From a virus: DNA of 64,000 bases. Below, one piece after another: positions 1,517-33,200 of the stretch. A program made the translations under genes and the position numbers. Within the stretch, counting starts at the first letter, position 1; the number at the start of each line of letters is the position of its first letter. The notes under the pieces are model-generated. The model made no database searches and was not told the origin of the DNA. It saw nothing but the letters and a program-made list of their open reading frames with translations. The stretch lies in IMG/VR virus record IMGVR_UViG_3300047090_000102, positions 1 to 64,000 of that record. One strand, written 5' to 3'.

Positions 1517-1696
1517 CTAGCGCAGAGTCGTTAATCTGCCGCAGCGTTTGCAGGTCGTTTCGCCGATGTACAGAGTACGCCCGACGAAGTGTAAAACGAT
1601 AGTGCCATGATCCTCGATACGCGGGACCACTGCTACTTTCATGTCCTCGCGCAGTATCGGGTCGTGACCTAACAGCCAGCAGAGGAATCCGTTCAT
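1517..1696 (-). CDS. small zinc-ribbon protein (59 aa)
   Basis: Below the track cutoff. My translation gives MNGFLCWLLGHDP...TCKRCGRLTTLR. The ATG overlaps the stop of 1693..2193 (ATGA). Confidence 0.45.
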   Translation of the reverse strand: MNGFLCWLLGHDPILREDMKVAVVPRIEDHGTIVLHFVGRTLYIGETTCKRCGRLTTLR

Positions 1697-2193
1697 ACGT
1701 CTCCCGCCCGGCGCAGCGCCTCGTCAGCGATGTAAGCAAGGATCTCTTCGACTGAACCGCCGCGCTGTTTGATGCCGTAGCGGACAAGCAGATCGACAAT
1801 GTTTTGTGAGAAACTGCTAGAACGGAAGGACGCCACTACGTCCCGCAGCAGGGGTGCTGCCGCGATGAGGTGGATGTTGCACTGAGCCACACTCTCGGCG
1901 ATCATGAACCCGCCGTAATAGTCGATATTCTCTGAGCCGCTCAGCGCGCCAACTGGCAGAACTTCGGCGACCACAGCACCACGACCATGGTTGTTGGAGC
2001 CTTTGCCTGGATGCCATGGGCCCGGCGTCGATCTTGGTTTGACGTCCGGCTGCGGCAGCAGGTTCTTTTTAAGCCACTTTAAAGCCTCGGCAGAACGCGA
2101 CCCAGAGAATTCTATCTGCTCCAGCGCACACTCCACGCTCCAAAACTCTTCTGGTAACGGCGCGTCTTTGTTTGGTTCGTTATTTTCTGGCAT
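1693..2193 (-). CDS. Ead/Ea22-like phage protein
   Basis: TPGPW motif followed by ...GGFMIAESVAQCNIHLIAAAPLLRDVV. It has the same architecture as 10227..10607. Start chosen at MPENN (AAGGAGA 7 nt upstream). Confidence 0.55.
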   Translation of the reverse strand: MPENNEPNKDAPLPEEFWSVECALEQIEFSGSRSAEALKWLKKNLLPQPDVKPRSTPGPWHPGKGSNNHGRGAVVAEVLPVGALSGSENIDYYGGFMIAESVAQCNIHLIAAAPLLRDVVASFRSSSFSQNIVDLLVRYGIKQRGGSVEEILAYIADEALRRAGDV

Positions 2194-2497
2194 AGCCATT
2201 CTCCTTTCCATACTGCTTCAGCATCCTTCGGCAGTCTATGGGGATGTCCCAGGATGCATCCGCGCTCACCATCTCCGTGTGATGAGGGTTAGCCTTACAG
2301 GCGGCAACGATATCCCTGATGTCTTCGCGGGCAATTAAAGTACGCGGCCCATCGACGCCAACACATACGGATTTCTCCGTGTCGTACTGTTTGCGCCAGT
2401 ACTCGGCTCGCCTCTCCCATCCCATTTCCAACGCAGCAAGAGCAATGATGACGATACCCAAAACGATTAGATGCCCGTACCCTTTACTCCTTGACAT
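2180..2497 (-). CDS. membrane-anchored hypothetical protein
   Basis: ATG with GGAGGA upstream. N-terminal hydrophobic helix HLIVLGIVIIALAALEMGW. Confidence 0.55.
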   Translation of the reverse strand: MSRSKGYGHLIVLGIVIIALAALEMGWERRAEYWRKQYDTEKSVCVGVDGPRTLIAREDIRDIVAACKANPHHTEMVSADASWDIPIDCRRMLKQYGKENGYARK

Positions 2498-2509
2498 GTC
2501 TGTCCTCCA

Positions 2510-2788
2510 TCACGCGAAATCAATTAGCGTTCCAGCGACTTCCTCGGCGAGTTGGAGAACGCGCTCCAACGTTGGGCCGTGAACAACATTGAAGCCAACC
2601 GGTGTGCTTGGATACCAGTGAAGACTCCAGAGACTGTCCGTGCGAATGCACTCTGCTTTGTCCTCTGGCGTCATGTCCGAGTAGTATCCTTGGCTGTCCT
2701 CGGCGAACTCCTGGGCTATGGTTTCATAGTTGTCTTTGTAATCGTTGTGCGTCAACATCAGACTGCACTTGTGCGCAGGGAATTTCAT
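2510..2788 (-). CDS. hypothetical protein
   Basis: ORF 2510..2857 trimmed to ATG 2788, which overlaps the stop of the ATPase gene (ATGA). Confidence 0.55.
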   Translation of the reverse strand: MKFPAHKCSLMLTHNDYKDNYETIAQEFAEDSQGYYSDMTPEDKAECIRTDSLWSLHWYPSTPVGFNVVHGPTLERVLQLAEEVAGTLIDFA

Positions 2789-4077
2789 GCCGACTCTCCC
2801 TTGACATGGCCATCCTCCATCACGATTGCTGCAGGACCGCCCTTTAACATCTCGCACCAGACCTGATAGTCGTGAGTCTCTGCCATCTCCGCGAGCAAGG
2901 CCATGCTCTTGTCGTCCAGCAGGGACCCGTCGCGCACGCGCAGCACTCTCAGTTTAGGATTCGCGGCCATGGCGATCGCGCAGGACACTCTCAACTGCTC
3001 GGCGTCTGAAGCCTGGTCCAGCGGGAGCCCGTTGTACGTCACCGCCTGCTGGCCAAACCCAAGTCCTGGGACCGGCATCTGAGCGCGGGAGATAGCGTCC
3101 ATCTTCTGTTTATCGCGTAAGTACATGCGCCCAGTAATGACCTCGGATTCCTGCTGCTTTGCCTTTACTTGCGCGGCTAACGCATCCCGCTCGGTGCGGC
3201 GACGGATAGAGTCATTCGTCTTCTGCGCCTGCTGCAGTTCTACCTGGAGTACCGCAGTATCGATCTCTTGGTCTGTCGGCTCTTTCAGGTTTGCGAGGGC
3301 TACGCTTAGTTCTTGCGCCTCCAATTCTCTGCTTCCTGCGAGCGAGTCGAGGTGCATCGCTTCTTTACGCAACTCCTCAGCACGTGCGCGGTAATTTAGG
3401 GCGATGTCTTTGGCCGCAGCAATCCCATCAGTGAACTGCTGCTTATTCCGCTTGAACGCCTCGCGGCTCAGTACGATCTCACCGTTAACCTTGCCAGCCG
3501 AAGCGATCTTATCCACCATGGCACCAGTGTCTATCGCTACGGCCGGCAAGTCCTGGGGCAAGTTGAAGCCGGTAAGTTGTCCTTCGATTCGTTTGATTTC
3601 GCGATTCAGGTCGGTACGCGCATCGAAGTCAGTTTTGTTCTGACGGTCGAGCGCTTCTGGGTCAACGTCCAGTTTCACCATTCCGCGCAACGTTTTGAAT
3701 TGCTTGTCGCGGTCCATCCGCATGAACTCCAGTGGGTCAAACGTGAGGTTCCCGGTCAGAGCATCGAGCATCGCCTGGGGACTTGGATACTTGGCTCCAT
3801 CGGCGTTCTCTACGGTGATCGTCGAGCCGGACTTGGTGAAACGCCGCGTCACCTTCAGTTCGCCCAGGTCAAGCTTGACGACGGCCTTCTCCTCGCCTTT
3901 GCGGATTGGCTGATCTTGGATGTTCTTCGTCCCGGCGAGCGCCCAGAAAATGCTATCCAAAACACTGGTTTTCCCTTGGCCATTCGCTCCGCTGATCTCA
4001 ACCATACTGCCAGACGGTTTGATTTCGACTACGCTGATTCTCTTGATGTTGGCGGCGCTAAGACTCAGAATTTTCAT
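2785..4077 (-). CDS. SMC/RecN/SbcC-like AAA ATPase (recombination-associated)
   Basis: Walker A GANGQGKTS at the N-terminus, a long coiled-coil middle, and the Walker B-like LRVLRVRDGSLLDD near the C-terminus. Confidence 0.7.
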   Translation of the reverse strand: MKILSLSAANIKRISVVEIKPSGSMVEISGANGQGKTSVLDSIFWALAGTKNIQDQPIRKGEEKAVVKLDLGELKVTRRFTKSGSTITVENADGAKYPSPQAMLDALTGNLTFDPLEFMRMDRDKQFKTLRGMVKLDVDPEALDRQNKTDFDARTDLNREIKRIEGQLTGFNLPQDLPAVAIDTGAMVDKIASAGKVNGEIVLSREAFKRNKQQFTDGIAAAKDIALNYRARAEELRKEAMHLDSLAGSRELEAQELSVALANLKEPTDQEIDTAVLQVELQQAQKTNDSIRRRTERDALAAQVKAKQQESEVITGRMYLRDKQKMDAISRAQMPVPGLGFGQQAVTYNGLPLDQASDAEQLRVSCAIAMAANPKLRVLRVRDGSLLDDKSMALLAEMAETHDYQVWCEMLKGGPAAIVMEDGHVKGESA

Positions 4078-4104
4078 AAGTTTACTCCCTTTCTTTTTGG
4101 TTAC

Positions 4105-4491
4105 TCACCACGCAGCGTTTCTGTCATTTTCCGTGGCCCAGTACGCTTCCATTTCCGCTTTGAAGTCGAACTTGTAATCAATCGGACCGTACTCTGCCCA
4201 ATCGTCTTTGCTCTGAATTTTAGCTTGAACTATTCCGGCCAGAATGCAGCAAGGACAGTTCCCCGCTAACTTCCGCAGATCGGCCAGCCCGTAATCAGTC
4301 TTGTCATACGTGACACAGGCTTTCAGTTCTTCGATGGGTCGCTGCGGGTCTTCGATGCCGTACTTGTGCAGATTGCAGACTCTCGCCGGATTGCCGACAC
4401 ACCGTGCCTCGTGCGCTTCCATCGAAGACTTGCGGTAGCCGATCTTCTTGCAGAAGTCACAGCCGTACCGGATTACATGTCGTGATCGCAT
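4105..4491 (-). CDS. Cys-rich hypothetical protein
   Basis: ORF track. Multiple CxxC pairs (CDFC, CPCC). Confidence 0.55.
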   Translation of the reverse strand: MRSRHVIRYGCDFCKKIGYRKSSMEAHEARCVGNPARVCNLHKYGIEDPQRPIEELKACVTYDKTDYGLADLRKLAGNCPCCILAGIVQAKIQSKDDWAEYGPIDYKFDFKAEMEAYWATENDRNAAW

Positions 4492-12201: not shown

Positions 12202-12648
12202 ATGGACAGGACACCGAATGGTTTTTCAATCGACGGATGTGACAGAGTAAGCACTACTGACTGCCGAAATGGCATGAACAGTCCATGGGGAGCTACTGCA
12301 TTTGAACTGGAGCTGTGGGCGCTGGTGCAGGCCCAGGAGGAACAGATAGAGCAATTGGAAGTGCGCCTTAAAACATCAAAGGAAGGCCTATCTCAGCAGT
12401 TAGATTCAGCGCTAGAGGATAAGGGGATGGCGAATCTCTCTTGGAGGGCAACGGATAAGAAATGGAGAGACGCCATCGCACGGCTGGCGGGGCTGCTCAG
12501 CGCGGCGAAACTCGGCAGGAAGCTTTGCCCGCTTCTTGGCGGCTTGAATCATCGGCCATCATGGTTCACTGAGGATGACGCATGGGAAGCATGGGTCAAT
12601 TTGGATGAAGCTTTGCGGGCCGCAATAGCAGAGGCGGAGAAAATTTAA
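12202..12648 (+). CDS. coiled-coil protein, paralog of 10607..11560
   Basis: Shares a 24-nt identical block (12316-12339 = 10718-10741) and the C-terminus LRAAIAEAEK with 10607..11560. Confidence 0.6.
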   Translation: MDRTPNGFSIDGCDRVSTTDCRNGMNSPWGATAFELELWALVQAQEEQIEQLEVRLKTSKEGLSQQLDSALEDKGMANLSWRATDKKWRDAIARLAGLLSAAKLGRKLCPLLGGLNHRPSWFTEDDAWEAWVNLDEALRAAIAEAEKI

Positions 12649-14258
12649 CGGCGTCTGCCGCGTAACCGACTGACGTTGTATGCTCCGCGGCGTCCCATAG
12701 CTACCGGTTTCGGCTTGGCTTCTTCGATCGCCTTCTGGTAAAAGACCATGCGCGAGGTGACGTCCTCTTTCGGGATGCCCTTGATTGCCTCCATCGCCCT
12801 TTCGTGCGCCGGCATCTCGCCAACATTGGTGAAGGAATAGAGCCCGTACCCAGCGCAGTCCATTGCGTCATCCAGCGGATCCCCGATTACCTTGATGATG
12901 TCCCCAGTCTTTTTGGGGTCGTGCATGCGGCTCGGGATAGCGTCACACAGCTTCGGACAGGTGTCTGCTACTGCCCAGTTGCCGGTCTTGAGGTCCGTGT
13001 ACATCAACTGCCACCGGCCCGCGCGATCGTTTGATGCCCGAATCACTCCGATATTGTATGACGCGAACTGGTCCTGGAGTTGGTCGGCTATCGTATGGCC
13101 ATCGCCAATGTCCTTGAAGTTAGATGGATCCAAGAACACAGCACATACGCGGCGTTGCTGGCCCTGGTAGAGAGGCTTGACGAAAGCATCGGCCACCATT
13201 TTACCGAAGTCTACGGCCGGCACTTTGGACTCAACGATCTCGGCGATCGTCCGTATCTGCCCAGTTTGTAGTCTAACGTGCAAGTAGGCGGCTGCCGAGC
13301 TCTTCCCGAAACCATAGTCGATCGAGATAAAATGTGTATCCCACCAGTGTTCCTGAATTGAAGCGTAAGGAATAATCATCTTATTTTGGTCCCAGTGTGA
13401 GAAGTAGGCTCCCTCGAGCTTGCACCAGCAGCCCTGCTCCATGGCTTTGGCTAGGCCACCAGACATCATGCGCAGGCGATAGACGTACTTCTCGTCGAGA
13501 AGGTTGTGATCGGTTAGACGACCAGGGATAAACGCGATCGAGAATCCATGGCCGTCCTTGTCGCGGAGAGGATACTTGTCTGATGGCCAGACAGCATCGT
13601 AGTAGAGCCGACCCGATACCGCGCATTTATCTGGTTCGTGAACCGGGCAAGCACCACGAAGAAACATCTTCTTGTGGAATGCAGCTCCAACATGTCCGGG
13701 GTTAGATGCGAGACGCATGCGTAAACGTAAGCGCTTGTCGGTGGACGCCAGACGGCCCAGGATATTGCGAATCTGGTATTCAGTGTGGAAGGTACTTTCA
13801 TCGAACCCAATCCACGAATATCGAGGGCCCAAATATTTATCCACGGCACCGTCATTATCCATGATCGCCAGCCGTATGGTTCCCCCAGATGGAAACGTCC
13901 ACATCCAGTTTGGCTGTCCGACATAGCGCGCACCCATTGGCAAGTACAGTTTGCGCGTTTTATCCACGATGTCAGTCATCTCCGTGAATGCTTGCCGGAA
14001 GATGATGCCGCGTAGATTTGGGTTGTCACGCTCCATTGCCGCATCGACTAGGAGAGATTCAGTTTTTAGGCTACCTGCGCTGCCTCCTAGAAATAGGATA
14101 TCGGCCATACACTGAAGGGCCTCTTCCTGCATCTTGGTATTTGGATACCAACCAACAGGCAGTCCGCTCCCAAGGCCAGGAAGTAATGCAGTTTCTCCCA
14201 TCTGTTGTTCTGCCATGCGCGCGGCGGCTGCGCGCTGTTCAAGGCTGTAGGTCGACAT
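12645..14258 (-). CDS. terL: terminase large subunit
   Basis: Walker A-like GGSAGSLKTES and Walker B-like WIGFDEST. RNaseH-like nuclease half with ISIDYGFGKSS...DPSNF...DDAMDC. Preceded by a small-terminase-like gene. Confidence 0.8.
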   Translation of the reverse strand: MSTYSLEQRAAAARMAEQQMGETALLPGLGSGLPVGWYPNTKMQEEALQCMADILFLGGSAGSLKTESLLVDAAMERDNPNLRGIIFRQAFTEMTDIVDKTRKLYLPMGARYVGQPNWMWTFPSGGTIRLAIMDNDGAVDKYLGPRYSWIGFDESTFHTEYQIRNILGRLASTDKRLRLRMRLASNPGHVGAAFHKKMFLRGACPVHEPDKCAVSGRLYYDAVWPSDKYPLRDKDGHGFSIAFIPGRLTDHNLLDEKYVYRLRMMSGGLAKAMEQGCWCKLEGAYFSHWDQNKMIIPYASIQEHWWDTHFISIDYGFGKSSAAAYLHVRLQTGQIRTIAEIVESKVPAVDFGKMVADAFVKPLYQGQQRRVCAVFLDPSNFKDIGDGHTIADQLQDQFASYNIGVIRASNDRAGRWQLMYTDLKTGNWAVADTCPKLCDAIPSRMHDPKKTGDIIKVIGDPLDDAMDCAGYGLYSFTNVGEMPAHERAMEAIKGIPKEDVTSRMVFYQKAIEEAKPKPVAMGRRGAYNVSRLRGRRR

Positions 14259-18233: not shown

Positions 18234-21200
18234 CTACTGAAATACGCCGTCCCGCAAAGCCTCGGAGCGTTTTACCGGGTCTTTTAACGTCTGTATCTCC
18301 TTCTGAATGTAGATCGGCATGATGACTACCCGCTCCGCCGGCGTGCTTTCCGCCATGACTTTCTTGATCTGGCCCAGAGTGAACCTCGGCAGCATCCGCT
18401 TGAATTCATTGGTCCGCATCTTGAAAAGGATCTTCTTAACATCAGCCTGGGTCAAGTGTCCGCTCGCGATTCTGGCCTTGTTGTCCGTGTACTCCTGCTG
18501 CTCTTCTGGCGTCCGTGGTGGCATCGCCTGTCCTGCGAACCGGTGCATCAGAATCTCTGCCGGGCTCATGCTCTCTGACTTCGGGAACTTGGTGCCCAGT
18601 AGAAGCCGCAGCGCTTCTCTCTTGCCCGCGCCTGGCTCGGTGTCACGCTCGTATTGCTCGTACTGCATCAGTGGGCCGATAGAACTCTTGCCCATGTGCT
18701 CGCCGATCTGTTTCGCTTTCGTCACAGCACTTCCCTCCGGGTTGTAAACAAAGTCGTTCTTGTAGTCACGGTTCTCGATCACATCATGCGCCGCGCGGAT
18801 CAACGTCGACGGCGTGAATTGGGACTGTGCCAGAGAGGAGAACGAACGCTCACCCTTGGCAGTCTCGATCATCTCCGCCGGCAGCTTTGAAAGTCCGAAT
18901 CTGGGCGACTTGGCATTCGGTTCGTTTGTAACTTTCTTCATGAATTGGTCGTAGGCTCCGTATCCCACAGCCACTAGAAGTCCTAACATCGCCAGCATGC
19001 TGAGTGCGTGCCCGCGAGCCTGATCGTCCACTCCGGACTTGAATGCTCCCTCGAAGATGTTCTTGTACGCCTTGAAGCGCCCGAGGTGGTATCCGTTGAA
19101 CCAGGTCAGCCACCGGGTCCGCATGATGTCGCCTAGGAGTTTGGAATCGAGCGGCCGCGTCGGAACTTGGTAGTCGGGGAAAATCTTGTTCGTCTCCCGG
19201 ACCGCTGCCTCCATGCTCATGCCGTCGGCGATCTTTTCATGCACTGACTGCATATACAGAATATCGTTCGAAACGAAAGCTGCGGCGTGACTTGCCCGGC
19301 GGATCGCCTGTACCGGGTCATCGCCCTGACGCAATCCCATGTAGTCCCGCATCTTCTCTTTGAACGGCTTGTTATTTTCCATCATCCCGGTCATCAGTTC
19401 GACGAAGTGCTTATTCAGGTCGGACACGTATTGCTTGTGACTCATCAGGTGGGCGCCCGCGTCCAACGCTCGGATGTAGTCGGCGTCTTTTGTCACTGCG
19501 GACTTTATGGCTTTAGCCATTGTCGACGTTACATTGCCTAAGCCAAGAACGTTGGCGTTTGCCACTGCACCACGGCTGACTACGGCGAAGTCTGCCATGT
19601 TGAGAACATGGAGTAACGGATTCAGCAGGATCGACGTTTGCGCCACGTCCGCGAGTTTGCCCAGAATGCTTGGCGCGTTTTCTTTGTTCAGTTTGTCGGC
19701 GAATCTCTGAAGCACCTCGGCGGTCCTGGGCTCGAACTGGTAGCCTCTGAACTGCGGCAGGTTCGCGATCTCTTTCCATCCGCGAGGGGCATATAGTCCT
19801 TTCTCTGGCAGCATGGCGACACTCGCGAAGGCCGGCGAGGACTTCCACGCATCAAGGAACCGCTTGGCTTCTACGGCCCGGGTGAGTTGCAGGAAATCCG
19901 CCATCGTCGTGGCTACTGGATCCCGGAAATAGGTCAAACCGGTATTTTCCTCAATTTCGTCCTTGGTCGCTTGGGTGATTGACCACTCGCCACGATTATC
20001 GTCAATAAATCGTTTTCCGACAGTAAAGCCCGATGGAGCCTCGCCCGACATAGGAGTAGGCTGGCCGCCGTCCCATCCGGTCACCTGGCCGTCTTTGAAT
20101 GACACTACCCGTCTGGTGCCCTCGCCGTCGTCCAGGGAGTACATGACGCGCTGTTTTAGAGACGCGGCAGTCTTACTGAGTACATTTCCCCGTCCGCTGC
20201 CTCTGGAGCCCTCTGTGGCACGCTGGAGCTGGTTCTGGCGATCGCGGACCACCCGGTGGAGGTACGTGGGGTCAAAGTCTGCCGGGATGTTGGCCTCGCG
20301 CAATTCCTCGTAAAGCGCCTGATTGGCCTCGCGCAGAGGAGTCACGTACTGATCAAGGATTCTCTGCTGCTCTGGGCTGAGCGACGTTGGGCCTGCCTGG
20401 GGAACCAGCAAGGAATCGATATGGCGGTCCACGGCCAGCCGGTCAGCGACCGTGGTGTCTTTGCCGACCTCCTGGAGAGTCTTCGCTGCGGTAATCGCCG
20501 ACCCTTCAAACTTGCGGTCCAGGTCTAAAAGGTTCGTTTCAAGGTTACGGGACTTGGCGAGGTTCTCTTTCCGCTCTGCCCGCGCTTGCCACTTTGATGG
20601 CAGTACGTGGGACTGGATCAAGTCGCGGACAGGTGCTGCCGCTTTGGCTATGGCTTCTACCAGTGGTCTGACGAGAGCGCCGGCTCCGCGTTCAATGACT
20701 GGTGTCGCGTGAGACAGGACTGCTGGTACGTTGAGATTGGCGAATCCACGCTCTCCTTTGCGCTCATCCTCTTTGAGTGAGTACGCTGGCGGTTCTACTG
20801 TAGGCTTTTGGCCTTCTCCGCCCGCATTTTCCTGATCTCGTCCGCGATTGCCCGGCGGCGCGATACCGGTCGGGCCTGCTGCGCTACCTTCGCCAGCCGC
20901 TGTAAGCCCTCGCGTACCTTCTCCGGGTCGGACTGAAAGGGCTGCTCTGTTGGTTTGGAGTCTGACGATTGAGAGTTCATGGAGCTCCTTTGCTCGGTCA
21001 AACATGCCATTCATAATCTCGGCGATCTTTGCGGGACCGTGATGGCGTTCGAGTTCGTTGTAATATTCGGTGAACCAGTCGGCGGCGTCTTCTGGTGATA
21101 GAGTGTTTTCGTCTGCTGCGATCTTGGCTGCCATCTCCGCGACTTTCATGTAATCCGGGTAGGCTTGATAGTAGGAATGCTTCAGTGCTGTGCCGAGTAG

Positions 21201-24200
21201 CTTCTTGGCGACCGGGTGATTCAGTAATCGCGGATAGGCGTCTTCCGGCAGATGCTCGGCAATCTTTCCGGCTCCCAACTCACGTTGTACTCCACCGTGG
21301 AATACCTCTTCTTGGAAGATATGTTCATCCCTCGCGCCAGTGAAGAAGTTCACGCCTTTGGTCTTTGCCTGGGGAGACTTTGCCGCTTGGTCGAAAGCAC
21401 TGGCCAGTGACTCCATGTCCTGCCGTACTTTTGCGTCTGTGGCCATTGGAGCAAAGTTACGCAGGTTCTGTGCAGTTCTTGCGGCCTGTGTGACGCTTAG
21501 ATTGGCTCCAACGATTCCATGCGGCGCACCGATGGCGGAACGTGCCATATCAAACGCGGCAGAGGACAACTCGACGGTCGGCGGAATCGAGCCTACCGAG
21601 GGCCGATACACGGCTTTGATCTCGGTAACTTCAGGAGCGTTCTCTCCAGTACTCTCCCATCCGCTTGGCGATTGCAGCGAGTAGGCTGGCTCTTCCTCCT
21701 CACCTCCCTTCGTCTCTACTTCCGCCGGGTATGTCTTCAGCACCTTGTCGAGGATATTGGCGGCATTGAATCTCTCTGTCCCGCTCATTGGCAGATAGTA
21801 GATCGGCTGTAACCCCTTCTCGTAGACAACACCCATGCTCTTGAGTTGCTCGCCCATTCCATGCCCTGACGGTATGAACTGCACAACCCTGTCACGGCCA
21901 ACACGCCCGCGCACGATTCGAGTCCCGCCCTCCAGCCGATATGGTGTGTTGTTTTCGAGAACATCCTTGATGATCTGGGAGGAGTTGACCGCGCTCTTGT
22001 TGCCGGTGATCTTCGCCAGGAGTTGGGCAATCTGCTCTTTCGGAATCGCCACTCCGACCACGCGCTGGCCGGACTTTGAGTCAACGACGGTGTAGACTTC
22101 AAGCCTCTGGGTCGAATCGTGGATGGCATTCCACCAGTGCATAACCGCGCCGCCGATCAGATGGTTGGGAGTCGTGTTGTGGGCCGGTGCCGCCTCGTAT
22201 TGTTTGCCCCACTCCTCTTTACCCCATGCAATCGGGTCCTTGGTAGCCGCTTCGCTATCGGCCAAGCTCTTCTGCGCACGCTCGAGAGCTTCCTCTTTTT
22301 CCTTGATCGACTCCTCTGTGTAGTATTGCGGATAACGCTCGCGGGATTCCTTGGTGGACTTCAGACTCCACTCTGCCGACTGAACAGAACTCTTCGCCTT
22401 GTCTATGGTCTTCTTGGACCACTCTGATATCTCTTCGAATCCAGGTATGTACGCTGGTTTCTGGTCAGCGCCGTGACCCCATTTACCAATCTCAAGTTTG
22501 TGATTTGCAACCTTTTCCCACTTGCCGTAGTCCGGATACACGACATAAGAGGCTGGCTCCCTGTGGCCGTCTGCTCGTATGATGTCTTTCGCGTCCACTA
22601 CGAACGCCAGTTTCCCATCACCGTTTCGCAGGATGCGCGGATTGAGTTTAGAATCCTGCTTCATCTTCTTTTCAAGTTGCGCGACCGAGAGCCGTTCAGT
22701 ACGAACATCGGCGTCCACTGGATAATAGAATGTCTCGGCCCCGGTCTTAGGATCACGTGCGATCACACGCTGCTCTTTAACAGTGAAAGTGTCTCCGGGC
22801 ATCTGCTTGACGCCGGTATCGAGCGTTCCGTTCTCAATCGCGTCCTTTACCGCTGCTTCAAATATGTCATAGAAATAGTTGTAGGCTCCGTTCTGAACAT
22901 CAGGGTCAAGAGCCAGGAGACGATTGAGCAAGCGGGTCACGTTGACCATGTCGGCGTCGGGCACGGTCGGCGCACCGCCTTGCCCAGTCTTCAACACCTT
23001 TAGGTCTTCCAGTATCTGCATCCCGGTAAGGTTCTTGCCTTTCGATTCTTTAGTCGCGGTCTCCGGCACCTCTGTGTTCTTCAGGAGACTTTGATAAAAC
23101 GCCCTGGTCGCGGCCTTACCCTGGTCGGTCTCGAAGTTGACTTTGTCCATCATCTCCGTGCCTTCGTTCGTCTTGGTCTGGCCTTTGGACAAAGCTTCGA
23201 GGGACCCCAGACGTCGGGCAATGGTCGAGATGAACCGGCTCTCGCCTCCCATATTGGTCTTGAGTAAGGCATATTCTGGAGGTTGAACCTGATTGCTTCG
23301 ATGTGTGCGACCCAGCATCTGCATCGCGCGGTCAGCGCTCCAGCCGACTTGCAAAGTGATATGCAGCCGTTTCTGCTGGTTCTTCATGTCCTTACCAGCA
23401 TGGAGCGAGATCCCGGTACCGCCGGCAGTTGACAGAATTGCTACGCGCTTCTTGCCAGCGTTGAAGTTTCCTTCCTCCACTTTGTTGATCTTGTCGCGCG
23501 CTACACCCGGGTCACCACGAGAGACGAACTTGCTCGTCGTCGGATCGAAGCGTTCTTTGCGTCCGGTGATCTCTGCGACCTTACTGTGACCACCCAGAGA
23601 TTCAACGAGGATATCTAGTGGGTTCGCTGGCATCTGTAGGTTTTGCTTCAGTTCTTTGATGAGTGCATCGCGCTCGGCTACGGCCTGCGGGTTGACCACG
23701 GGAATATCACGCCCGCTTTCGTCCTTCTGTGTCGCCAGAACCTTGATCGGTTTGCCTTCCGAGTCCACATCATCAATCCATTGCTGGGTTGGATAGTGCT
23801 CTTGCACCAAGTCCATCAGCATTTCAGCCGGCCCAAAGTCGTAGTCCGGTATCTCGTCCGTATCCTCGAGTCCCTTAAACTTCAGTTTCTCTCGGTTCTG
23901 TGCGGCCTCGTTCGTGTTGACAAGGCTGATAACGACACTCTTGCCATCGCCCAGCGCCTTGTTAGCTTGCTCGACCGCCGTAGGTATCTTGAGAGTTGTG
24001 AGCAGGACGTTGAAGAACCGTTGCTGGCTCGCGTAGAAGAGAGACATGAAGCGGGATTTCGCGCGACTGCCGCCATTCACCGTGTTCTGGATCGTATCTT
24101 CTACACGCTGTGATACCAGTTTCCACGCCTTGACCGCGCTGCGGTACAAGTCCTTCTGCTCGTCGTTAACCGTGTGCTCGATCTCGGAATACTGCACACC

Positions 24201-27200
24201 TTTATAACTCAAAGTCCGCGATACGTACTTGCCCTGCGACTTCAGTTCTCGCGCGATCATCTCCATGGCACTCATGCCGCCGGCAGAAATCTTAGCGTTG
24301 AACTCTTCAAAGCCACCAGGGAACGGTGTGCCAGCACCCCAGATGCCGAGCCGGTCCATGTATCCCAGGTTTGTCACGTCTGTCGCTGGCGTTGCTGAAA
24401 GGAAGAATGTCCTTAGCTTGGGATTACGTTCGAGGAACTTTTTAACTGTGTCGCCGGTCAGCGACACCTCTTGTTGGCTTCTGGCTACGGCGTTTTTTAA
24501 AGCTTGACAGTTATGGACTAGGAGACCGCCAGCGAAGTAGTTTCTGGTTGCAGTCTCGATATTGTGCACTGTACGGCAGACTCTACGGTTTCCAGGGAAT
24601 CCAGTATCTCCTGGTTCTTGAATCTCATTACAGTCCAGCCTACAGATTGGAGGAACACCTCTTTGCGCCGATCTGCCAGTTTCACCTTTATCGCTTGGTG
24701 TCCCTCTCCGTCCACCTCTATCGCTAACTTCAGTGACGGTTGCGAAATATCCAGTTTGTAGTGAGTCGGCAGTCCAGTCCCGCGATGTGTGTTGGTCGTT
24801 ACCACGAACTCCGTTGGCCACCCCAGCTTCTCTGCCAGCATTCGCTGCCGCAAGGACAGCGGCGTTCCGTTCCCGCCATTGAGATGAGCGAATCCTTTCT
24901 TGCGTGAAGCTTCTAGCGCTACGGCCCTGACTGCTGGACTGCGTAATGGATTCGTTGGGCCGTAAAGATGCTGCTGCATTTTCTCTTGAACGTCCGGGCG
25001 CTTGCGGACTTCTTGAAGAATTGCAGACCACTTCTGCTTTCCTTCTGGAGTTATACGCCTTTTGGCTTTCAATTCCTGATTGTTCATCCGCCACTGTGCC
25101 GAGCACTTCTTCGTACAAAAACGACGTTTTATCGTCCCCCTGATACTGTGAGTAGTACTCCGCTTCGCTACAAATGGCTGCTGGCACAAAGCACAAATGA
25201 GGTTGAAGGGCATCAGGTACAAAGTCTAATAGCGCGACGGTGTCATCGCAAGCCAATTCGTCCGAAGGAACGTATCCACGATTGGCAGTCCAGACTGGGT
25301 GATTGCCGGTCATCGGCGTTTCGTGCACGATTGTAAAATCATTTACGGTCTCACGTCGGAATAGATAAAGTACTGGCGTAGCCTCTATTTCCCCGGTGTC
25401 GTGATTAAATCCCCAAACGCTATCTCCTATGTGTAGTTGCTCGATTGGTACAGGACCGGATGGGGTTTCTATCTTCGTACCAGCAGGAACGCACTCATCG
25501 AAGATAACGTGTGCACCCTCACCCTCATCATTGCCGCGTATCCACTTCTCCAATTGAGCAATGCGCTTGTTGCCTTTTTTGTCCTCGGAACGAAGCAACG
25601 CATACGTAGAAAACATGATCCCTTCATGATCAATCGGAGTTGTGGCCGGCTGCTTCATAAAAGGCTTGATCGTCTTGGAAAGGGTCGTCGCGCCGATACC
25701 GTCGAGGTCGCGGATGGCGTCCTGCATCAAATCCCACTTCTCTGATACCCACACAAGACGGCGTCGCCCTTGGCGCCAATTGTCGAATAACACACCGGCT
25801 GCTTCTCTGCCCTTGCCAACCCCGGTGCCGTCGGAACTAGCGGCTGCGGCACGATGACCGCTTGGCAAAATGATCTGGTTCTGCTGCCCGGCGAGAGCGA
25901 TCGGCTCCATCTGGACTGCGGAAATGCGCCCCTCGGTAACTACAGACTGCGGCAAGCGCGGCTGATATGTAATCTCTGGCAGTGAGACAGTCGCCATAGA
26001 TTTACTTTCGACTATCGGGCCAGGGTGTGTAGAGCCTTTGAGTGTTGGGCGATACGAAACAAAAGCAGACGTGTCCTCAGTCTCCGCTTGTTGCTCGCGG
26101 GCCTCGCGTTCGAGTTGCAGTCCTTGTTTCTCTGCTTCTGTTGCTGGTGGGGCTTTGGGCTTGCCTTCGATGGGCTTACCCAGAAGCGAGGACACTTCCT
26201 GGTGGACTACTTCGAGGTACGGCCGCGCCCATTCGCCCAGGTCGGCGATCATCTTCTTGGACCATGGGTCAAACTGGATTATTCCTTGCTGGAAGTGAAA
26301 TCCGCCGACATCGACCATGTCGTTGATGTCTTCGGGCGTGAGTTCTTTTTCGCCGCCTTCTTCCAAACTGTATGCCGGTGGCTCTTCTCCTTCTGGCTGC
26401 ACCTCACCGCGGCGTGCACGCAGCCGCTTCAGTGCTTCCTCGCGATTGTCGGCCGTGAAGCGTTCGGCAGGTTTGGGCTTCGGAGTTGCAGGCTGTATCG
26501 CGCGGGGTTTCTTGGCCTCTAGTTGCGCCAGTTTCTGTTTTAGCGCTTCGTACTCTGGGCTGCCTGGCTGTGGCTGACCTTCTATTTTCTTGCCGAGCCT
26601 TTCTCCTGCTGCTTTGCGAATTTGTTCGCGGAGTTTTTCGGCTGCACTTACTGTAGACGGTCGTTCAGCGTTGACTGCCGGAGTAGAGCCTCCAGCACCT
26701 CCAGCGGTTTGCACTGGTGTACGAGGTCCTGTTGCAGGTTGAACTTGGGATTGCTGTAGTGGAACTGGTTGATTGCCGACTCCGGCTGCGACTCCTCCAG
26801 GTTGGCCAGGAACTCGTTCAGGTCCACCTGTAGGTTGAATTTCTGCGCCAGTGCCTCGCTCTCCTCGTAGTGGTTGTCCACTGCCTGCTGTGCCAGGAGC
26901 TTTAGATTCTCCCACACCAGTTGCGGCGATTTCTTGCCCAGTGCCTGCTGTGCGGGCGGTTCGAGTCGGGACTGGCCTTGTTTCTGCAACATTCTCAAGG
27001 AGAGTATACGCCTGTTCGAGTGTACTAACATTGCCCTGTACAGTAGAATCCCAGTTTTTTAGGTCACCGCGGTTTGCTTCCCTTTTGAGATAGGCCAGAC
27101 GCCAGCTAGGCTTCCCCTGCAATTCTTGTATTTCATCGGTTATCCGCTTACGGCCGAGCGAGCCCATTCGGGACGGCGTAGAACCGTCCTTGTCGATCAC

Positions 27201-30200
27201 GATGATTCTGGTAGCAAAGCTTGTGCCGTACTTGGCGTACTCCTTGCCAGCAATACGGATGTTGGCGCGAACATTGTACTTTTCGGCTATCTTGTCGAAC
27301 CACCTGCCGGCGCCACCCGGGGCCGTGAGTGCCGCTCCGCCGTTGGCATCGTCTGCGCGTCCACCGCCCAGAATGGTGACAAGACGCCCGCCAGGAGCCA
27401 GACGCTGCAATGCGGAATCTACGTGATTGAATCCATAGACGTTGCGGTTTTTGACCGCCTGCCCTTCTGCGCCTTTTAATGCGCCAGCGGAAAACGGCGG
27501 GTTCATGATGATCACTGTCGGCTGGACAGAACTCTTGAGCAGGGAGTTGATGATCTCGCCGTCGTGGGAAGTGATGTTATCGAACCCAACGTGCTTGAGC
27601 ATCGCCTGTCTGCGCGTCGAGATCTCGTTAACGTGAACCTCGGCGCCAACCGCTTTGGCGAATATTGCCAGACCACCGTTACCGCCGGATGGCTCCAGAA
27701 CCACGTCATCGGGTTTTATGCCAGCGACTTTGGCCACGGTGTAGGCCTCGGTTGGCGGAGTCGAGAACTGCTGGCCCTTCAGTTGCTCATCTGTGCGCGT
27801 GCTCTGCGTTGGCAGACGGTTCATGAGGTTCTCGCGCAACATCGCCAGACCTTCGATCGCTGGCATGCCCATCAGGTTTTCGCCGGCGTCGAGCAGGTAT
27901 TTGTTGACACCTGCCTCCATGGCGTCGGTCGCGTCTTTGGGTGTCCACTCGCCCGAAACCCGCGAGGATCCAAAGTGCTCGGCAGCCAAGCGCTCGAACT
28001 GCGGCATATTTCCGAGGGATTCTCCAGTTATGAGCTTCTTATAGACTGCGTCTGCCAGTTTAGCGGCAGGGGTTGCCTCTGGCTCTTTATCGACCGGAGT
28101 GACTTCGCTCTTGAGTGCCCAGCCCTCTATCCGCTCATGAGTTTTGGGGTCTTGTAGGCGAACCCTGTTTCCCTGCTCGAAACCTACTTCGTACTGCTTT
28201 CCGCGATATTCTACCAGATCACCAATTCTGTAAGTTAGCGGGCCGGGAGGTTGAGGCTCATATCCTGGCAATGGCTGCGCGGCGTATCCCTTCCGGCGAA
28301 TCTGTTCATCCCTGATTTTTTGCAGTTGTTTATTCAACGCTGGAGTTGCGCCGCCGTATGTTCCGCCTGTAGTCTTGTTTGCCTCTAGTGCCTTTTCGAG
28401 TTGGGTTACGCGCTCGGCCAGTGTCTGATCTGAAGCCTCACGTATTTCTGCTGGCTCTGATACACGAGTTTGAGGGCGCGCTTCGTAGCTTCCTTCTTCT
28501 GTTGGAACAACGTCGGCTTTCTTGATTGTAAATTTCGGCTCTGCCTTAGTCGCCTGCTTGAGTTCGTGTACTTCCGGCGCCGTCAGTGGCTTTGCTTCCG
28601 CCTCACGGTTTGGCGCTTCATCGGATGGGTGGACTTCCCACTGATCAACACCAGACCACCGGGACCACAAGTCCTGACCCCATGCTTTGGCCGCTTCTTC
28701 TGTGGGGAAGCGTAGAGCGTTGTAGGCCCAGTTGGCATCGCCTTTGCCTTTGACGCCGACCTTGAAGCTCTGCTGTGGGCCCGGTGGCGTGGCGGTCTCA
28801 GCGGCCTTGTTGAGCCAATATCCTGGTCCGGTGTTGGCGGCAATATTCTCGCCGAAATCTTGGAAGGTAAGGGGTTCGTGGTCTGGCTTATCGAGATATT
28901 CCGAGTAAGCCTTTTTCATCTCATCGAGAGTCGGTATTCTTCCACCCTGGTTTTTGCCGCGCTTTTCGAATGTTGGCTGGAGTACGTGCTTCAGTTGCTC
29001 CTGGTACCACTTATCGTCATATCCACTTCCGATACCACTAAGCCATTGGCTTCCTTCCGAACTAGTCTCTTTCTTATTGGCCTGCGACCTATCATCCATC
29101 CATTTGTTGGTAGCGTCGGTCTCGATCTGGAAACTGTTTATTTTACGTTGAGCATCCGCGATCGCCTTTTCGCGACTTTCGTTCATCCTTGAAATTGAAT
29201 AGCCGTCCTGGTCGTTTACCTGCCAGAGCTTTCCACTCTTGCCGGCTGAATACTCAGTGACAGTCCAGCCTTTCGGTAAATCGGGCGCTTCATCCGCGCG
29301 GAACTTAGCGATCTCCTGCTTGTCTGGCATGGTCGCGTGGTTACGCACACGCTCGCCTTTGATCCGGTTGCCGTCCTTGTCGACGGCTGCTACGTCTACA
29401 TTCCATCCGTTCTTTGGCCAATTGGCTCCAGGTTCAGGTGGATGGAACGCAATGACTTCGTCCCTCTGGCCGCCGTATCCATTGACGATACGGCCGGGCT
29501 TGAAGAACCGCGGCAGCTCTTCATCACTCAAATAGTTTGGACTGGTCTTCGCTGGCGGCGTCTTTTTGGCTGGGGCGGCCGCGGGAGTGGCAGGTGCGCC
29601 TTCCAGGATTGCCAGCCTCTCTGCCTTGCCTTCTGCGGACAGGTACGGCGTGTTGCGCACGACCTGCGTCATTTTGACACGCTGCTCTGGCGTCATCTTG
29701 TCGAAGTTGACGCGCCACTGGTCAGTTATGAGATCAGACTTTACCTCGGTCGGGGCTCGCTCGCCTTTGGTGTCGATGACGAACGTGCGGCCATCGCGGC
29801 GAATTACTTTGTCTCTCGATGGATCGAAGTCTGATATCTGTTGGGCATCCAGCTTCGGTCCACCGCGGCTTTGAGGCGGAAGCTTCAGCAGTTTGGCGTC
29901 CCTCTTGGCCTCTATCTCCGCGAGCCTCTTCTTGAGATCTTCGTACTCGCGGCTGCCTGGGCCGGGCTGACTAGGCTTTGTAGTTGCCGCCGCTTGAGGT
30001 TCAGGTGCTTTCTCTTCCTCCTGTGCCTTCCACTCTTTCACGTCTTCCCGGTGTCCGATCTTCTGCATAAACATGGAATCGCCGAGATACCCGGGCGTGG
30101 CGCTCAGATCGTTTTCATCGACACCATATAACTCGAGTCCGTCCTGGCCGCCACCTACGATCTGGTTGACAACAAACCGTTGCCGCTTATCCCCGTATCC

Positions 30201-33200
30201 AGTATTGATCGTTTCGAGCACATCGCCGACGCCGACATCCATCGCTTTGAGTTTTCCGTTCTTGTCCCACTCTGCTTGGAGTTCAGCTTTACGCTCACTG
30301 GCCTCTTTCTCCGCGTCGTCTGCACGCTGCTTTTCCGCTGCCTTCTTGGCCTCCTCGCGCCGCTTGATCTCCGGATCGTTCTTCACGGTCCAGTTCTGAT
30401 CGGCCGGGTAGGTCTTGCCAACGGATGAGGTGCTTCCAATCAGAGACGCGGAGCCGGTAACGCGCACACGCAGCTCGCCCTTGCGGTTCGTCTCGACTTT
30501 TCCGTTGATGTACGCGATCGATCCGCCGAAGCCTGGGACTGCCTGGTAGACCTCGTCGCCATCCTTGGATTTCATGCGGCCATCGGCCCATGTGTCAGTA
30601 GCAGCCGCGCCAAGAAATTGCTTTATCTTGGCATCAAACTTTTGTTTGCCATTCTGCTGTAGCAGCTTAATGGTGCCATCTAGGGTCCGCTGCTCGGTGC
30701 TGTGTTGATGGATTTCAGTGAAGAGACGCGCACCGGTGGTTATCTCATAGGAAGACCATCCCTGTTTGTCGTGTTTTGCGATACTTCCGCGCGGCGGCAC
30801 GACGGCGATACGGTATTCCTCGAATCCAGGCAAGAGGTATTCGGTTCCCTTGAGGTGGAGTTTTTCGCCACCATGGAGAGGATTAGTGAACTCCACTCCA
30901 CGCTTGAGAACCAATGGCTGTGCAACCTGCGGTGGGTTATCGCGCTTGAATGTTGGAACCTCCGGAGACTTGGCAGAAGGGGCCGGTTTAGCGATTGCGC
31001 CTGTAGCCCTATCAACAATTTCCCCGATTTCCTGCCTGATTTGGTGCAGTAATACCGCTTCATGTCCGGGGATTTTCTTTCGTCCAGCAATCAAATCACG
31101 TTCGGCGGCGCGCAGAGCTTCGAGTTTTACGCCCTCTTCCGAGTCTGCTGGTATGCGGGCCGGGCTACGCTTCTCCTGCGCTTTTTGGGCGGCGCGAACA
31201 GGCTCGGCTGCTCCAACTCCCTGGCCAGTTGAACCTGATCCCTGACCTTGGCCGGGAGTCTCTGGAGTACGAGTTTGAGCTTGTCCTGCATCTGTGGATA
31301 AACCTGTTGAAATTGTACCACCAAGCGGTATCGTCTCCTGGCTCCCGTCCTTCTTTGATACGACGATATGGTCTACTGGGACATTTTGGCCTTCAAGTTG
31401 CCTTCCGCCTTTGTATTGTGCGGCGACCTCTGGCTTTACGTATCCAATCGTCAAATGCGGGCGATAGGAGTCGAACGTGTCTTTGTGGAAGCTACCTGCG
31501 CCTTCTACAGCCTTACGCAGCGCCAGCAACTCAGGAGTGCTCTCCAGTGGCGCAATAACCGGTACAGCGCCGTCAGAGTGCTCGCTGGCAGGGAATGTAT
31601 CGGTCGGCCCAATAGGGACCTCGAACGGGGCGATCTTTGACGCCGCTTCTTTGATCTTCTCGACCGCTGCCGGACTGTCATCCTTCAGGCCATACCGCAG
31701 GGTCAAATGGGGGTGATCCTCCCGGCCCTTTGGATTCCCGCCGAAGTCAGTCGGCATCAGGTGCTCGTCTGGGATGGACGCCGCGGCTGCCGCGTGAGCC
31801 TGACCGAGTGCGCTCTCTGGCGCGATATTGATCTGAGTCGAGCCTTTCTTGAACTCCTGCTCTTCTGTCCCGGTACGCTCGCGGAACTGCTGGACCGCTG
31901 CTTCGTGGAATCGTGCTGCCTCATCCCAGTACTTCTTGCGCTCTGCTGACCCTTCAGGAAACTCCCGGCCCGAGGTGTACAGCCGGTGTGTTTGGTCTGT
32001 GATTGCCTGTATCTCAGGGATTACGATCTGGATTTCAGCACTCAAGCCTGATGGCATCTGAGCCTGAACATTAGCACTTGCGTATCCTGCCTTGTTTTCA
32101 CGCGGTTGCAGGAAGTTGTCTTCGACTCCAAGGACGTTGTACCGCTGCTTCAGCGCGGCGATGATCTGGTCTTTGGCTTCGACCGTGTCCGCTACGATCT
32201 GGCTGGCCAAGTAGTCGCCAATGGTGTTCGGCGGCTTGTCGTCTTCTGTCTTCTCGCCCAGGCGTTCCAAGTTCTTTTGCGGTCTGAGTCGGCCGCCGTG
32301 GGCTTCGTCAAAGTGGGCTCCTTGGACGCTCGCCGCGATCTCAGAGAGCCCGGCTGCCAGTTCTGGCGCCGCTTCTGCCGCGAGCCGTTCGTTCTCAATC
32401 TCGCTACCTGACGGCTGGACTATCTGACGGCCGGCTTCGTGGTCGTAGTCTCCAACCTTGGCTACGGCTACTTCTGAAGGCTCCTTGGCTGGCTGCGCGA
32501 GTTTCGCGGCATCGGCTGGAGATTCGTCTTTTACTTCTACCCGGGGAACCTGGCCCGGTGCAAGTTGGGCCTCCTGGTGTACCTTCTGTACCGCCGGTGA
32601 ATCGGTGGTCATTGCTCGTCCCATAGCAGGGACATCGCCAGCGTTCGGTAACTGTGGTGCTCCAGTCTGACCTTTGGTGCGTTCTGCCTTTATCCGGGTA
32701 GCTTCGGCTGAGATAGCGGGCGAGTAGTCGGCGTTCGCCGGTAGTCCCAGGTTCTTCTTGGCCTGCATCCAGTCGTCGGTTTCGTTCTGCGCCACGGTGG
32801 CGGATGTTGCTGCGGTCTCTGGTTTGGCGGGTGGTTCGCCTATCCATGTAGGCGGACGTGAGGGATTGGCCGCGTCTCTCTTGATGAGTCCATCCTGTTC
32901 CATTCTATCAATGAGGTGTGTGGCCTCTGCGTAACCAATATTGAGGCGGCGCTGCAAGAGAGATGTTGATGCCTTGCCGAATTCAGCCGAAGCCTGCTTT
33001 GCCTGTTCGTATTTGTCGCTCACTGCCGGTGATTCCGGCGTAGGTGTCGATGGTTTCGGCTTGCCGCGGTCAATCACCCGCTGTACAGCCGCTGCAGGCT
33101 TTGTTGCAGGCGTTGCAGGTTTATCTGCCGCTTTGGCCGCTGCCTCCTGCGCCTTGTTGTGCCCCTGGACGGCGTCATTTATCAACGTCTGCGCGAGCTT

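Follow-up and report, generated by a model that had tools for sequence, protein, structure and literature searches.

In canonical bifunctional inteins such as PI-SceI and PI-MtuI, the endonuclease lies in frame with the splicing domain. Fractured genes, in which split inteins are accompanied by free-standing Vsr-like or GIY-YIG endonucleases, are known from Dassa et al. (2009; PMC2677866): the N-terminal intein part (IntN) is followed by a stop and a non-coding gap of 27 to 51 nucleotides (nt), and the C-terminal part (IntC) has a separate start. The Vsr-like family of homing endonucleases occurs both in such genes and in introns (PMC2677866). For the idea that homing-endonuclease genes (HEGs) may lie out of frame or antisense inside inteins, Gosselin et al. 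cite Gorbalenya (1998). Gosselin, Arsenault & Gogarten (bioRxiv 10.1101/2025.01.02.630785) themselves reported antisense LAGLIDADG, antisense VSR-like and sense frame-3 EndoVII-like HEGs in actinophage terminase, capsid, polymerase and ThyX genes, and Phillips, DeSimone & Gogarten (bioRxiv 10.64898/2026.09.14.751524) reported a sense +2 LAGLIDADG open reading frame (ORF) in a cyanobacterial dnaX intein. Two further systems are close in one of their parts: the intron-encoded endonuclease I-Bth0305I (PMC3239194; PDB 3R3P), with its N-terminal NUMOD/helix-turn-helix (HTH) motifs, and the ShiLan "hidden HNH" insertion of actinophage methylases, an out-of-frame HNH gene without an intein (Arsenault et al. 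2025, PMC11855218). Here, we describe an element in a 64,000-nt stretch of viral DNA (positions 1 to 64,000 of IMG/VR record IMGVR_UViG_3300047090_000102, hereafter the window) in which a predicted Vsr-like HEG is nested, on the same strand and in the +1 frame, within an intein that interrupts the helicase module of a giant phage protein.

We consider it likely that this element is a mobile non-canonical intein, composed of a HINT mini-intein and a free-standing HEG that is read one base later. The reading is built on the geometry of the two frames, the homology of both parts, the selection acting on both frames, the conservation of the arrangement across a family of loci and the existence of intein-free alleles, all of which are demonstrated below. 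Related loci came from pattern-plus-tblastn scans of viral and metagenomic contigs, which returned 160 further loci, or 136 after de-duplication. The features concerned are the following (in motifs, a slash marks a splice junction):

18234..34928, minus strand: host ORF, 5564 amino acids (aa), a phage polyvalent protein (ORF list and Pfam)
25494..25499, minus strand: Walker-B/motif II "DE" codons GAT GAG of the N-extein, directly 5' of the intein (sequence)
24510..25493, minus strand: complete class-1 intein, 328 aa, from Cys1 to His-Asn, followed by Cys+1 (host-frame reading)
25242..25493, minus strand: N-terminal splicing lobe with blocks A and B (CVPAGT..., TGNHPVW; family profile)
24600..25241, minus strand: host-frame linker of ~214 aa, rich in R/S/G/Q, produced by reading through the endonuclease gene (translation)
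24510..24599, minus strand: C-terminal splicing lobe with blocks F and G, VHNIETATRNYFAGGLLVHN (profile match to the NrdJ-1 and DnaX mini-inteins)
24507..24509, minus strand: +1 Cys codon TGT of the C-extein, the trans-esterification nucleophile, which begins CQALKN, the rest of helicase motif II
24518..25222, minus strand: nested HEG in the +1 frame, 234 codons from TTG 25222 to the stop TAG 24520-24518
25213-25211, minus strand: ATG, the likely start of the nested ORF
25103..25195, minus strand: zinc-ribbon-like CxxC...CxxxC module, residues 10-40 of the nested product (Cys conservation, n=47)
24569..24763, minus strand: DUF559/Vsr-like nuclease core, residues 154-218, with D158, E169, D171, H175 and D184 (Pfam PF04480)
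24518..24599, minus strand: segment that co-encodes the last ~27 endonuclease codons (C-terminal helix 210-224) and intein blocks F and G

The helicase module of the host protein is a Strawberry-notch-type superfamily 2 (SF2) helicase, as judged from its Pfam matches: AAA_34 (8e-86) is found in two stretches with the intein between them, and Helicase_C_4 (2e-77) completes the module. The host frame reads ...HVIFDE/CVPAGTKIET...TGNHPVW...(~214-aa spacer)...VHNIETATRNYFAGGLLVHN/CQALKN..., which places the insertion (DE/C...HN/C) within the Walker-B motif, or motif II, of this helicase. The N-terminal nucleophile, a Cys at 25493-25491, comes straight after DE, and Cys is likewise the first residue in 110 of 114 relatives; block B TxxH is present as MTGNHPVW, with its His nearly invariant across an alignment of 57 hosts; and the C-terminal junction LLVHN/C lies at 24515-24507, the terminal Asn codon AAC being at 24512-24510. 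A family hidden Markov model of the N lobe aligns to intein residues 1-84 with 77 bits, and a profile built from four inteins of the family matches the NrdJ-1 intein (2e-12), a BIL domain (1e-9), the Spl DnaX mini-intein (8e-6) and RecA mini-inteins. These matches are split in two pieces, one for the N lobe and one for the C lobe; the spacer between them (profile positions 115-285) has no profile match in the PDB, and the host-frame string there, described earlier as R/S/G/Q-rich and open across the overlap, indeed has no homology to anything. In 42 of the 57 related hosts, Intein_splicing is found at E<=1e-3 (best 5.6e-16). The hallmark of fractured genes, a stop and non-coding gap after IntN with a separate IntC start, is absent, and the host frame is unbroken from 34928 to 18234; the window intein would therefore be of the cis-splicing kind, unlike those of fractured genes. 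Since its catalytic residues are intact and it interrupts an essential Walker-B motif, it probably splices.

The nested ORF matches Pfam DUF559 (PF04480) over residues 154-218 with E=2.4e-11 and 43.9 bits (gathering cutoff 20.6), and its sequence profile retrieves from the PDB 3HRL, a DUF559 structure (5e-10), and 3R3P, which is the homing endonuclease I-Bth0305I (7e-3). AlphaFold2, given a 47-sequence alignment, predicts with a mean pLDDT (the predicted score of the local distance difference test) of 89.8 a zinc ribbon at the N-terminus, a helical region and a nuclease core of the alpha/beta type, and models the zinc-ribbon region as two beta-hairpins, E6-9 and E16-19. The best folds found by Foldseek are again 3R3P (TMt 0.64) and 3HRL (TMt 0.73), both with probability 1.0 and E-values of only 2.5e-3 to 7e-3. 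Across the 47 homologues no variation is seen at C10, C13, C36, D158, E169, H175 and D184, while C40 and D171 reach a conservation of at least 90%, and the window copy has kept every one of the 16 invariant and of the 13 nearly invariant positions in the family. The acidic and histidine residues among these correspond to the conserved catalytic set of Vsr (D51, H64/N, H69 and D97). E169, D171, H175 and D184 align to the 3R3P sequence within the stretch printed by HMMER, whereas D158 lies upstream of that stretch and would, from its position, be equivalent to I-Bth0305I D196 and Vsr D51. Taken together, the product is predicted to be an EDxHD-type DUF559/Vsr-like nuclease, and both its endonuclease activity and its target are putative. 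Pfam finds no NUMOD match in the N-terminal region, where a NUMOD/HTH module might have stood; the zinc ribbon CxxC...CxxxC and helices are found there instead. A preliminary description of this DNA had placed an intact DUF559/Vsr-type ORF in the +1 frame of an open-frame intein, and its coordinates (234 codons, TTG 25222, ATG 25213, the stop and the 5-nt gap before the terminal Asn codon) were all correct; the zinc-finger-like N-terminus that it noticed corresponds to the four conserved cysteines, and the kinship that it proposed with the Vsr-like free-standing endonucleases of fractured genes is borne out.

The geometry of the two frames is unambiguous. The nested ORF is offset by +1 from the host frame, as (34928-25222) mod 3 = 1, its TAG ends 5 nt before the terminal Asn codon of the intein, and the +1 frame is closed by another TAG 6 nt, or two codons, upstream of TTG, the first nested start codon. 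While the third frame of the same strand holds 18 stops across the nested span, the host frame holds none, compared with a mean of 7.1 in 20,000 synonymous-codon shuffles (P(0)=1.5e-4). A host-frame stop requires an endonuclease codon that ends in T before a codon that starts with AA, AG or GA, and in the window T-ending codons are found at none of the 54 at-risk positions compared with 39 of 180 elsewhere. The same holds when three homologous loci are added: each of the four has zero host-frame stops against 7 to 9 expected (P<=1.5e-4 each), with T-ending codons at 0/54, 0/62, 0/58 and 0/55 at-risk positions. This avoidance is a signature of selection, and thus argues that the host frame is held open and did not arise from error. 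In ordinary cellular DUF559 genes, taken as a control, the corresponding frame contains stops in 56 of 57 cases (mean ~10), the sole exception being itself nested in an intein.

Selection on the two frames is strikingly unequal. In 13 close pairs of relatives, substitutions by endonuclease codon position number 181, 192 and 498 for positions 1, 2 and 3, and the ratio of nonsynonymous to synonymous substitution rates (dN/dS) is 0.08-0.31 in the endonuclease frame and 0.8-2.3 in the host frame. The endonuclease is therefore the constrained protein, whereas the host frame above it is merely kept free of stops; the same contrast between frames was seen in the dnaX intein (bioRxiv 10.64898/2026.09.14.751524). 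The codon-position comparison that the preliminary description had proposed thus came out in favor of a real endonuclease gene, and most of the relatives, which might have shown stops in one frame and no constraint, are open in both. Its word "overprinted" has the direction wrong, as the endonuclease frame is the constrained one and the term better fits the host-frame spacer.

Any host-frame stop of the +1 register (NNT/AA, NNT/AG or NNT/GA, the slash here marking the codon boundary) is removable through a synonymous change from NNT to NNC in the endonuclease, and the exclusive use of this register may have been favored through that erasability. That the genetic code forces the +1 register was rejected, given that +2 would leave only Met-A.. 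dicodons unfixable, and common descent explains the exclusive register equally well. At the 3' end, the overlap with blocks F and G recurs in relatives, whose nested stop lies at most ~20 codons from HN/. We dropped the notion of a "double constraint" on this co-encoding segment, where divergence is 12.4% compared with 13.4% and no extra nucleotide conservation is seen. Read in the +1 frame, the block F motif (Y/H)N(I/L)E gives the conserved endonuclease tail motif (S)TIS(K/R), in the window (24540-24590) as well as in relatives, and nucleotide divergence there is not below that of the remainder of the gene.

This arrangement is the rule among the related loci. The endonuclease lies in the +1 register inside a long open ORF in 120 of the 136 non-redundant loci and never in +2, and in ~110 of these 120 a ...YFxxGxLVHN/C or HN/S motif follows within 20 codons of the nested stop. 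The N-terminal junction is DE/C in 105 of 114 related hosts and DEAH/C in three. Some members are thus inserted two residues downstream, at DEAH/C instead of DE/C, and variant sites or putative variant hosts occur in loci L040, L041, L044, L020, L024, L039, L058, L104 and L124. By Pfam, the 57 hosts carry Helicase_C (42), ResIII (33), DEAD (26) and SNF2 (16), and three are AAA+ clamp-loader-like ATPases (DNA_pol3_delta2, Rad17, RuvB_N) and not helicases; loci with DE/CFAK...HN/CH(M/Q)(L/S)T junctions resemble these clamp-loader-like hosts by motif. The element thus appears to track Walker-B-like DE motifs across P-loop NTPases. In a one-genome-per-species scan, 21 of 23 full-length relatives, from metagenome-assembled genomes (MAGs) of many phyla, were nested likewise, with the HN/C or HN/S intein end detected in 20 of the 21. 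The closest surveyed relatives of the window element share only 45-51% protein identity with it, and the dual-frame state persists down to ~30%.

Gene annotation hides this family in two ways. The three closest database homologues of the nested protein (33-39% identity) lie on short metagenomic contigs, where the callers gave "DUF559" followed by "Helicase_C"; their DNA shows the same architecture, in which the real helicase ORF crosses a DE/C...HN/C intein. Likewise, in L001 (1-3500) and L002 (900-3800) a DUF559 ORF and a downstream "Helicase_C" fragment were called, truncating the helicase, and in L001 a spurious antisense ORF covers the N-terminal half. Two members come from finished genomes of cultured phages: Vibrio phage CP-T1 (L167; NC_019457) gp10, with the coding sequence at 1465-4446 and the nested ORF at 2348-3097, and Pseudomonas phage MR14 (L168) gp44, both annotated as a "putative helicase" and both with the same intein and an intact +1 endonuclease ORF. 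In neither is the intein or the nested gene annotated. The best 120 of 387 relatives at E<=1e-10 are all of stand-alone size (~135-270 aa), and most of them are unnamed, the names being "hypothetical" or "DUF559" where given.

Many relatives carry a translation start of their own for the nested gene, inside the host coding sequence. Shine-Dalgarno (SD) motifs with a start codon are found as AAGGAGG-N7-ATG in L002 and AGGAGG-N8-GTG in L004, and as GAGG-N9-ATG in CP-T1 and MR14, where the motif is supplied by the conserved "DEV" codons of the intein. An SD of at least 4 nt precedes 57% of nested starts compared with 25% of matched +1-frame controls, and one of at least 5 nt precedes 32% compared with 9%; 118 of 120 loci offer a start codon, the remaining two being on short or truncated contigs. 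This enrichment across the family favors independent internal initiation over frameshifting. The preliminary description had left both routes open; its internal initiation is upheld by the SDs of the relatives, and its frameshifting is not needed.

Several points weigh against a functional mobile intein in the window. Under Pfam, the window copy alone remains below the cutoffs, with 25.4 bits for Hint_2 (cutoff 28.4) and 13 for Intein_splicing (cutoff 35.8), and because of these low single-copy scores the intein is assigned from the family profile and from the positions of the motifs. Modelled by AlphaFold2 from its single sequence, the host-frame intein gives an uninformative structure (pLDDT 34.9), so that we can only infer the disorder of the spacer and the docking of the lobes. 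The dN/dS and mobility evidence comes from relatives, no close relative of the window copy having been found, and the motifs used for retrieval were derived from nested copies, which biases the nested fraction upward. Finally, neither TTG nor ATG at the nested start of the window is preceded by an SD, as had been noticed before; no sigma-70-like promoter was found there, the two terminator-like matches being on the wrong strand and at chance level; and the RNA fold around the start is no better than that of shuffled sequences (z=-0.31). The expression of this SD-less copy is thus putative.

This bare start is what one would expect if the architecture were real but the window copy were a relic, no longer expressed or active, its intein persisting as a de facto mini-intein and its ORF intact through recent fixation or because avoidance of host-frame stops slows its decay. 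We regard such decay, which homing-cycle theory predicts after fixation (bioRxiv 10.64898/2026.09.14.751524), as unlikely to have taken hold here. Although 42% of the family members are SD-less as well, SD-less initiation is common in the genome of the window; the 234 codons are free of stops and give a confidently folded model; all invariant and nearly invariant positions are kept, including the four zinc ligands and D158, E169, D171, H175 and D184, and selection on the host frame offers no protection from missense changes in the +1 frame. Moreover, intein-free target alleles still circulate in relatives.

The SD-less start could alternatively be bypassed by programmed +1 frameshifting, which would make a fusion of N-extein, IntN and endonuclease instead of a free protein. 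The register is always +1 and never +2, and L140 (see below) shows that an in-frame IntN-endonuclease fusion is possible, but the TAG of the +1 frame 6 nt before TTG leaves only ~10 codons before the zinc ribbon for the shift, no recognizable slippery, stall or stimulatory sequence or stable structure is found in 25170-25290, and relatives have a canonical SD and start at the homologous position, with starts available in nearly all of them. A 3200-aa fusion partner would also be implausible for a site-specific nuclease. Frameshifting therefore strikes us as very improbable, and internal initiation is the route that we prefer.

Evidence for mobility comes from intein-free alleles and from mosaics. 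The helicase module is free of the intein in two related phage contigs, L165 (74% identity) and L166 (60%), which read ...DESHNLKNAV and ...DESHALKNAV, respectively, across the site (pattern DE-SH-x-LKN):

intein-less motif-II site, L165-type equivalent: ...TATGATGAATCTCATAAC...

These alleles are candidate targets of the nested endonuclease. Between the window and L085, identity amounts to 47% in the HEG and 51% in the Hint part but 17% in the exteins; the element is far more similar than its surroundings, which therefore points to transfer between helicase families at their shared Walker-B motif. Between L048 and L061, divergence is ~22% in the two exteins, in the N lobe and over the 5' third of the endonuclease, but only ~1.5% from the middle of the endonuclease to the C-terminal intein junction (intein nt ~480-1050). 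In L029 and L053, the distal exteins are near-identical and the peaks of divergence flank the insertion site at up to ~100 nt, a pattern that co-conversion tracts would produce. Both mosaics argue for a partial independence of the endonuclease and the Hint lobes. Co-variation across the family is moderate (Spearman 0.47 for the endonuclease and the Hint lobes, compared with 0.43 for the endonuclease and the exteins), so that an inheritance "always as one unit" is not established.

L102 (3971-4159) and L134 (1125-1298) are ~97.6% identical on both sides of a non-aligning stretch of ~175-190 nt, which corresponds to the N-terminal zinc-ribbon region of the endonuclease and differs in length by 15 nt; an exchange of the DNA-recognition module may be responsible. 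The endonuclease cassette, or parts of it such as the zinc-ribbon module, may move between inteins independently of the splicing lobes.

The lineage also exists in other states. About a dozen relatives are free-standing, without Hint lobes nearby. L068 (2729-5524) is a canonical in-frame intein in a UvrD-like host, read as DE/C, N lobe, DUF559 core, C lobe and HN/C, with a nuclease core that lacks the zinc ribbon; the same nuclease lineage can therefore join the intein polypeptide. In L140 (3350-4800), a high-GC contig, N-extein, IntN and endonuclease form one frame that ends at the endonuclease stop, whereas IntC and C-extein occupy a different frame, which has a Met of its own (MLDVIRG...) and overlaps the 3' end of the endonuclease; this could be a natural split intein with the nuclease on its N fragment or a single-indel error. 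L140 is the only clearly fractured case among the relatives of the nested HEG, and L149 and L164 are degraded. The fractured, in-frame and dual-frame states imagined in the preliminary description therefore all exist, but its view of the dual-frame state as an intermediate is not supported: this state is dominant and has been long maintained among the sampled relatives, and the in-frame (L068) and fractured (L140) states are the rare ones in the clade.

The same observations bear on whether the gene homes at all. The nested DUF559 protein might instead serve the phage in a domesticated role (nicking, repair or anti-defence, for example), for which the intein would be just a safe harbour, since most proteins of the DUF559/Vsr superfamily are core-only cellular genes and not homing enzymes, the homing function here is predicted from homology, and the host is a DNA-modification/helicase polyvalent protein. 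However, the gene accompanies the intein across unrelated helicases, always at Walker-B, its nearest characterized structural relative is the homing endonuclease I-Bth0305I, its family is the one of fractured genes and introns (PMC2677866), and the presence/absence polymorphism and mosaic tracts fit homing, all of which makes domestication hard to credit. We give virtually no credence to an artefact, in which two compensating indel errors shifted an in-frame intein-endonuclease fusion: although a canonical in-frame version exists (L068) and the window comes from one assembly, the +1 register and the junctions recur alike in the MAG contigs and finished phage genomes as in the surveyed loci, the TAG closes the nested frame two codons before its first start, the avoidance of T-ending codons bears the mark of selection, and the same geometry in well over 100 independent divergent loci thus excludes sequencing error.

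For the mobile non-canonical intein, we propose the following mode of action. The splicing element would be a mini-intein-type HINT domain at the Walker-B "DE", its lobes parted by a stop-free spacer of ~214 codons. Ribosomes on the giant ORF would translate through the spacer in the host frame; the spacer, probably disordered, would loop out, the HINT lobes would dock and splicing would restore DE-C-QALKN. Internal initiation at the nested start (ATG 25213) would yield the endonuclease as a protein of its own, which in a co-infection would cut intein-less helicase alleles at or near motif II, so that repair would copy the intein together with the HEG. Selection against T-ending endonuclease codons before AA, AG or GA codons keeps the host frame open. 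Beyond the window, we tentatively suggest, at somewhat less than even confidence, that these loci form a very large, old and still recombining clade of at least 140 non-redundant loci, from phages and from MAGs of many bacterial phyla, in which sense +1 dual coding is the stable default at Walker-B sites. If true, no fusion of the two would be needed at any stage for a free-standing endonuclease gene to settle in a mini-intein.

These findings matter mainly at the family level, and a cultured system, the Vibrio cholerae phage CP-T1, is at hand. For annotation, they show that gene callers either keep the helicase and miss the endonuclease (CP-T1, MR14) or call the endonuclease and fragment the helicase (L001, L002), and that mis-split helicases ("DUF559 + Helicase_C") imitate fractured genes in public protein sets. 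For intein evolution, one endonuclease lineage spans free-standing, +1-nested, in-frame and fractured states, a series that makes the model of a free-standing endonuclease invading a mini-intein (Dassa 2009, Gogarten group) directly testable and indicates that the nested state can be long-lived and not transient. For the study of overlapping genes, they provide a clean case in which one frame is constrained only against stops, with the absence of third-position T before AA, AG or GA as its signature. As tools, they point to cis-splicing inteins able to accommodate ~200 aa of unstructured insert and to a large untapped set of Vsr-like endonucleases predicted to be aimed at helicase motif II.

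The contig is that of a phage, with the terminase large subunit TerL at 12645-14258 (phrog_979, 1e-33). Besides the helicase module, Pfam finds FtsK_gamma (1e-14) and 2_5_RNA_ligase2 (a 2H/LigT phosphoesterase, 2e-14) in the host protein, most of whose length is without a Pfam match; an NPPF-containing methyltransferase-like stretch is also present and goes undetected by Pfam at 1e-3. The start of the giant host ORF has no SD, like about half of the window's genes. Among the very few other recognizable genes is the following:

window 2785-4077, minus strand: SMC/RecF-like AAA_23 ATPase (1.4e-9)

In searches of the neighbouring genes with Pfam and PHROGs almost nothing was found besides TerL, this SMC-like ATPase and a head-decoration match, most of the large window ORFs (590-1094 aa) having no match in either database, and blastn of the 3-kb region against GenBank phages gave no match.

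Compared with the known systems, the element shares with canonical inteins the class-1 HINT architecture, with Cys1, block B TxxH and a terminal HN followed by Cys+1, as well as endonuclease coding between blocks B and F and a site in a conserved nucleotide-binding motif. Unlike in these inteins, the endonuclease is outside the intein polypeptide, and the excised intein would therefore carry a frame-shifted spacer of ~214 aa. With I-Bth0305I and 3HRL the nested protein shares, in its C-terminal part, a Vsr-like nuclease fold whose acidic and histidine residues are conserved, together with a two-part layout in which a DNA-binding region at the N-terminus is joined to a catalytic domain at the C-terminus; the N-terminal part, however, is a CxxC...CxxxC zinc ribbon with a helical region, and the similarity in sequence to I-Bth0305I is weak (profile E=7e-3), Pfam DUF559 and 3HRL being nearer. 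The ShiLan insertion is likewise an out-of-frame endonuclease ORF in an open host gene, missed by annotation and with its translation route an open question, but it has no splicing lobes, remains in the protein and encodes an HNH endonuclease. Fractured genes resemble the element in their Vsr-like superfamily, in the use of one strand, in their mostly phage origin and DNA-metabolism hosts, and in the overlap between the HEG 3' end and the C-terminal intein part (6-69 bp there, ~80 nt here), but the host frame of the window element is continuous.

The closest precedents are the non-canonical inteins. The general arrangement, an HEG in another frame of an intein, is already described, and the statement of the preliminary description that it lacked a described precedent was wrong in view of the two preprints from the Gogarten laboratory and of Gorbalenya (1998), as cited there. 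In all of these inteins, as in the window element and its family, the splicing lobes are in the host frame and the HEG lies out of frame between blocks B and F, the usual endonuclease position; the host frame is free of stops over the HEG and has an elevated dN/dS, whereas the HEG is under purifying selection; and all are read as mini-inteins that a free-standing HEG invaded secondarily. What appears to be new is a sense-strand +1 Vsr-like family at helicase sites: the searched literature, whose coverage is incomplete, holds no description of such a DUF559/Vsr-like helicase-Walker-B family or of its scale. The window HEG thus differs from the described cases in being a sense-strand +1 DUF559/Vsr-like gene with a zinc ribbon, inserted at the Walker-B motif of SF2 helicases, and in belonging to a large, phylogenetically broad clade, many members of which have canonical SDs.

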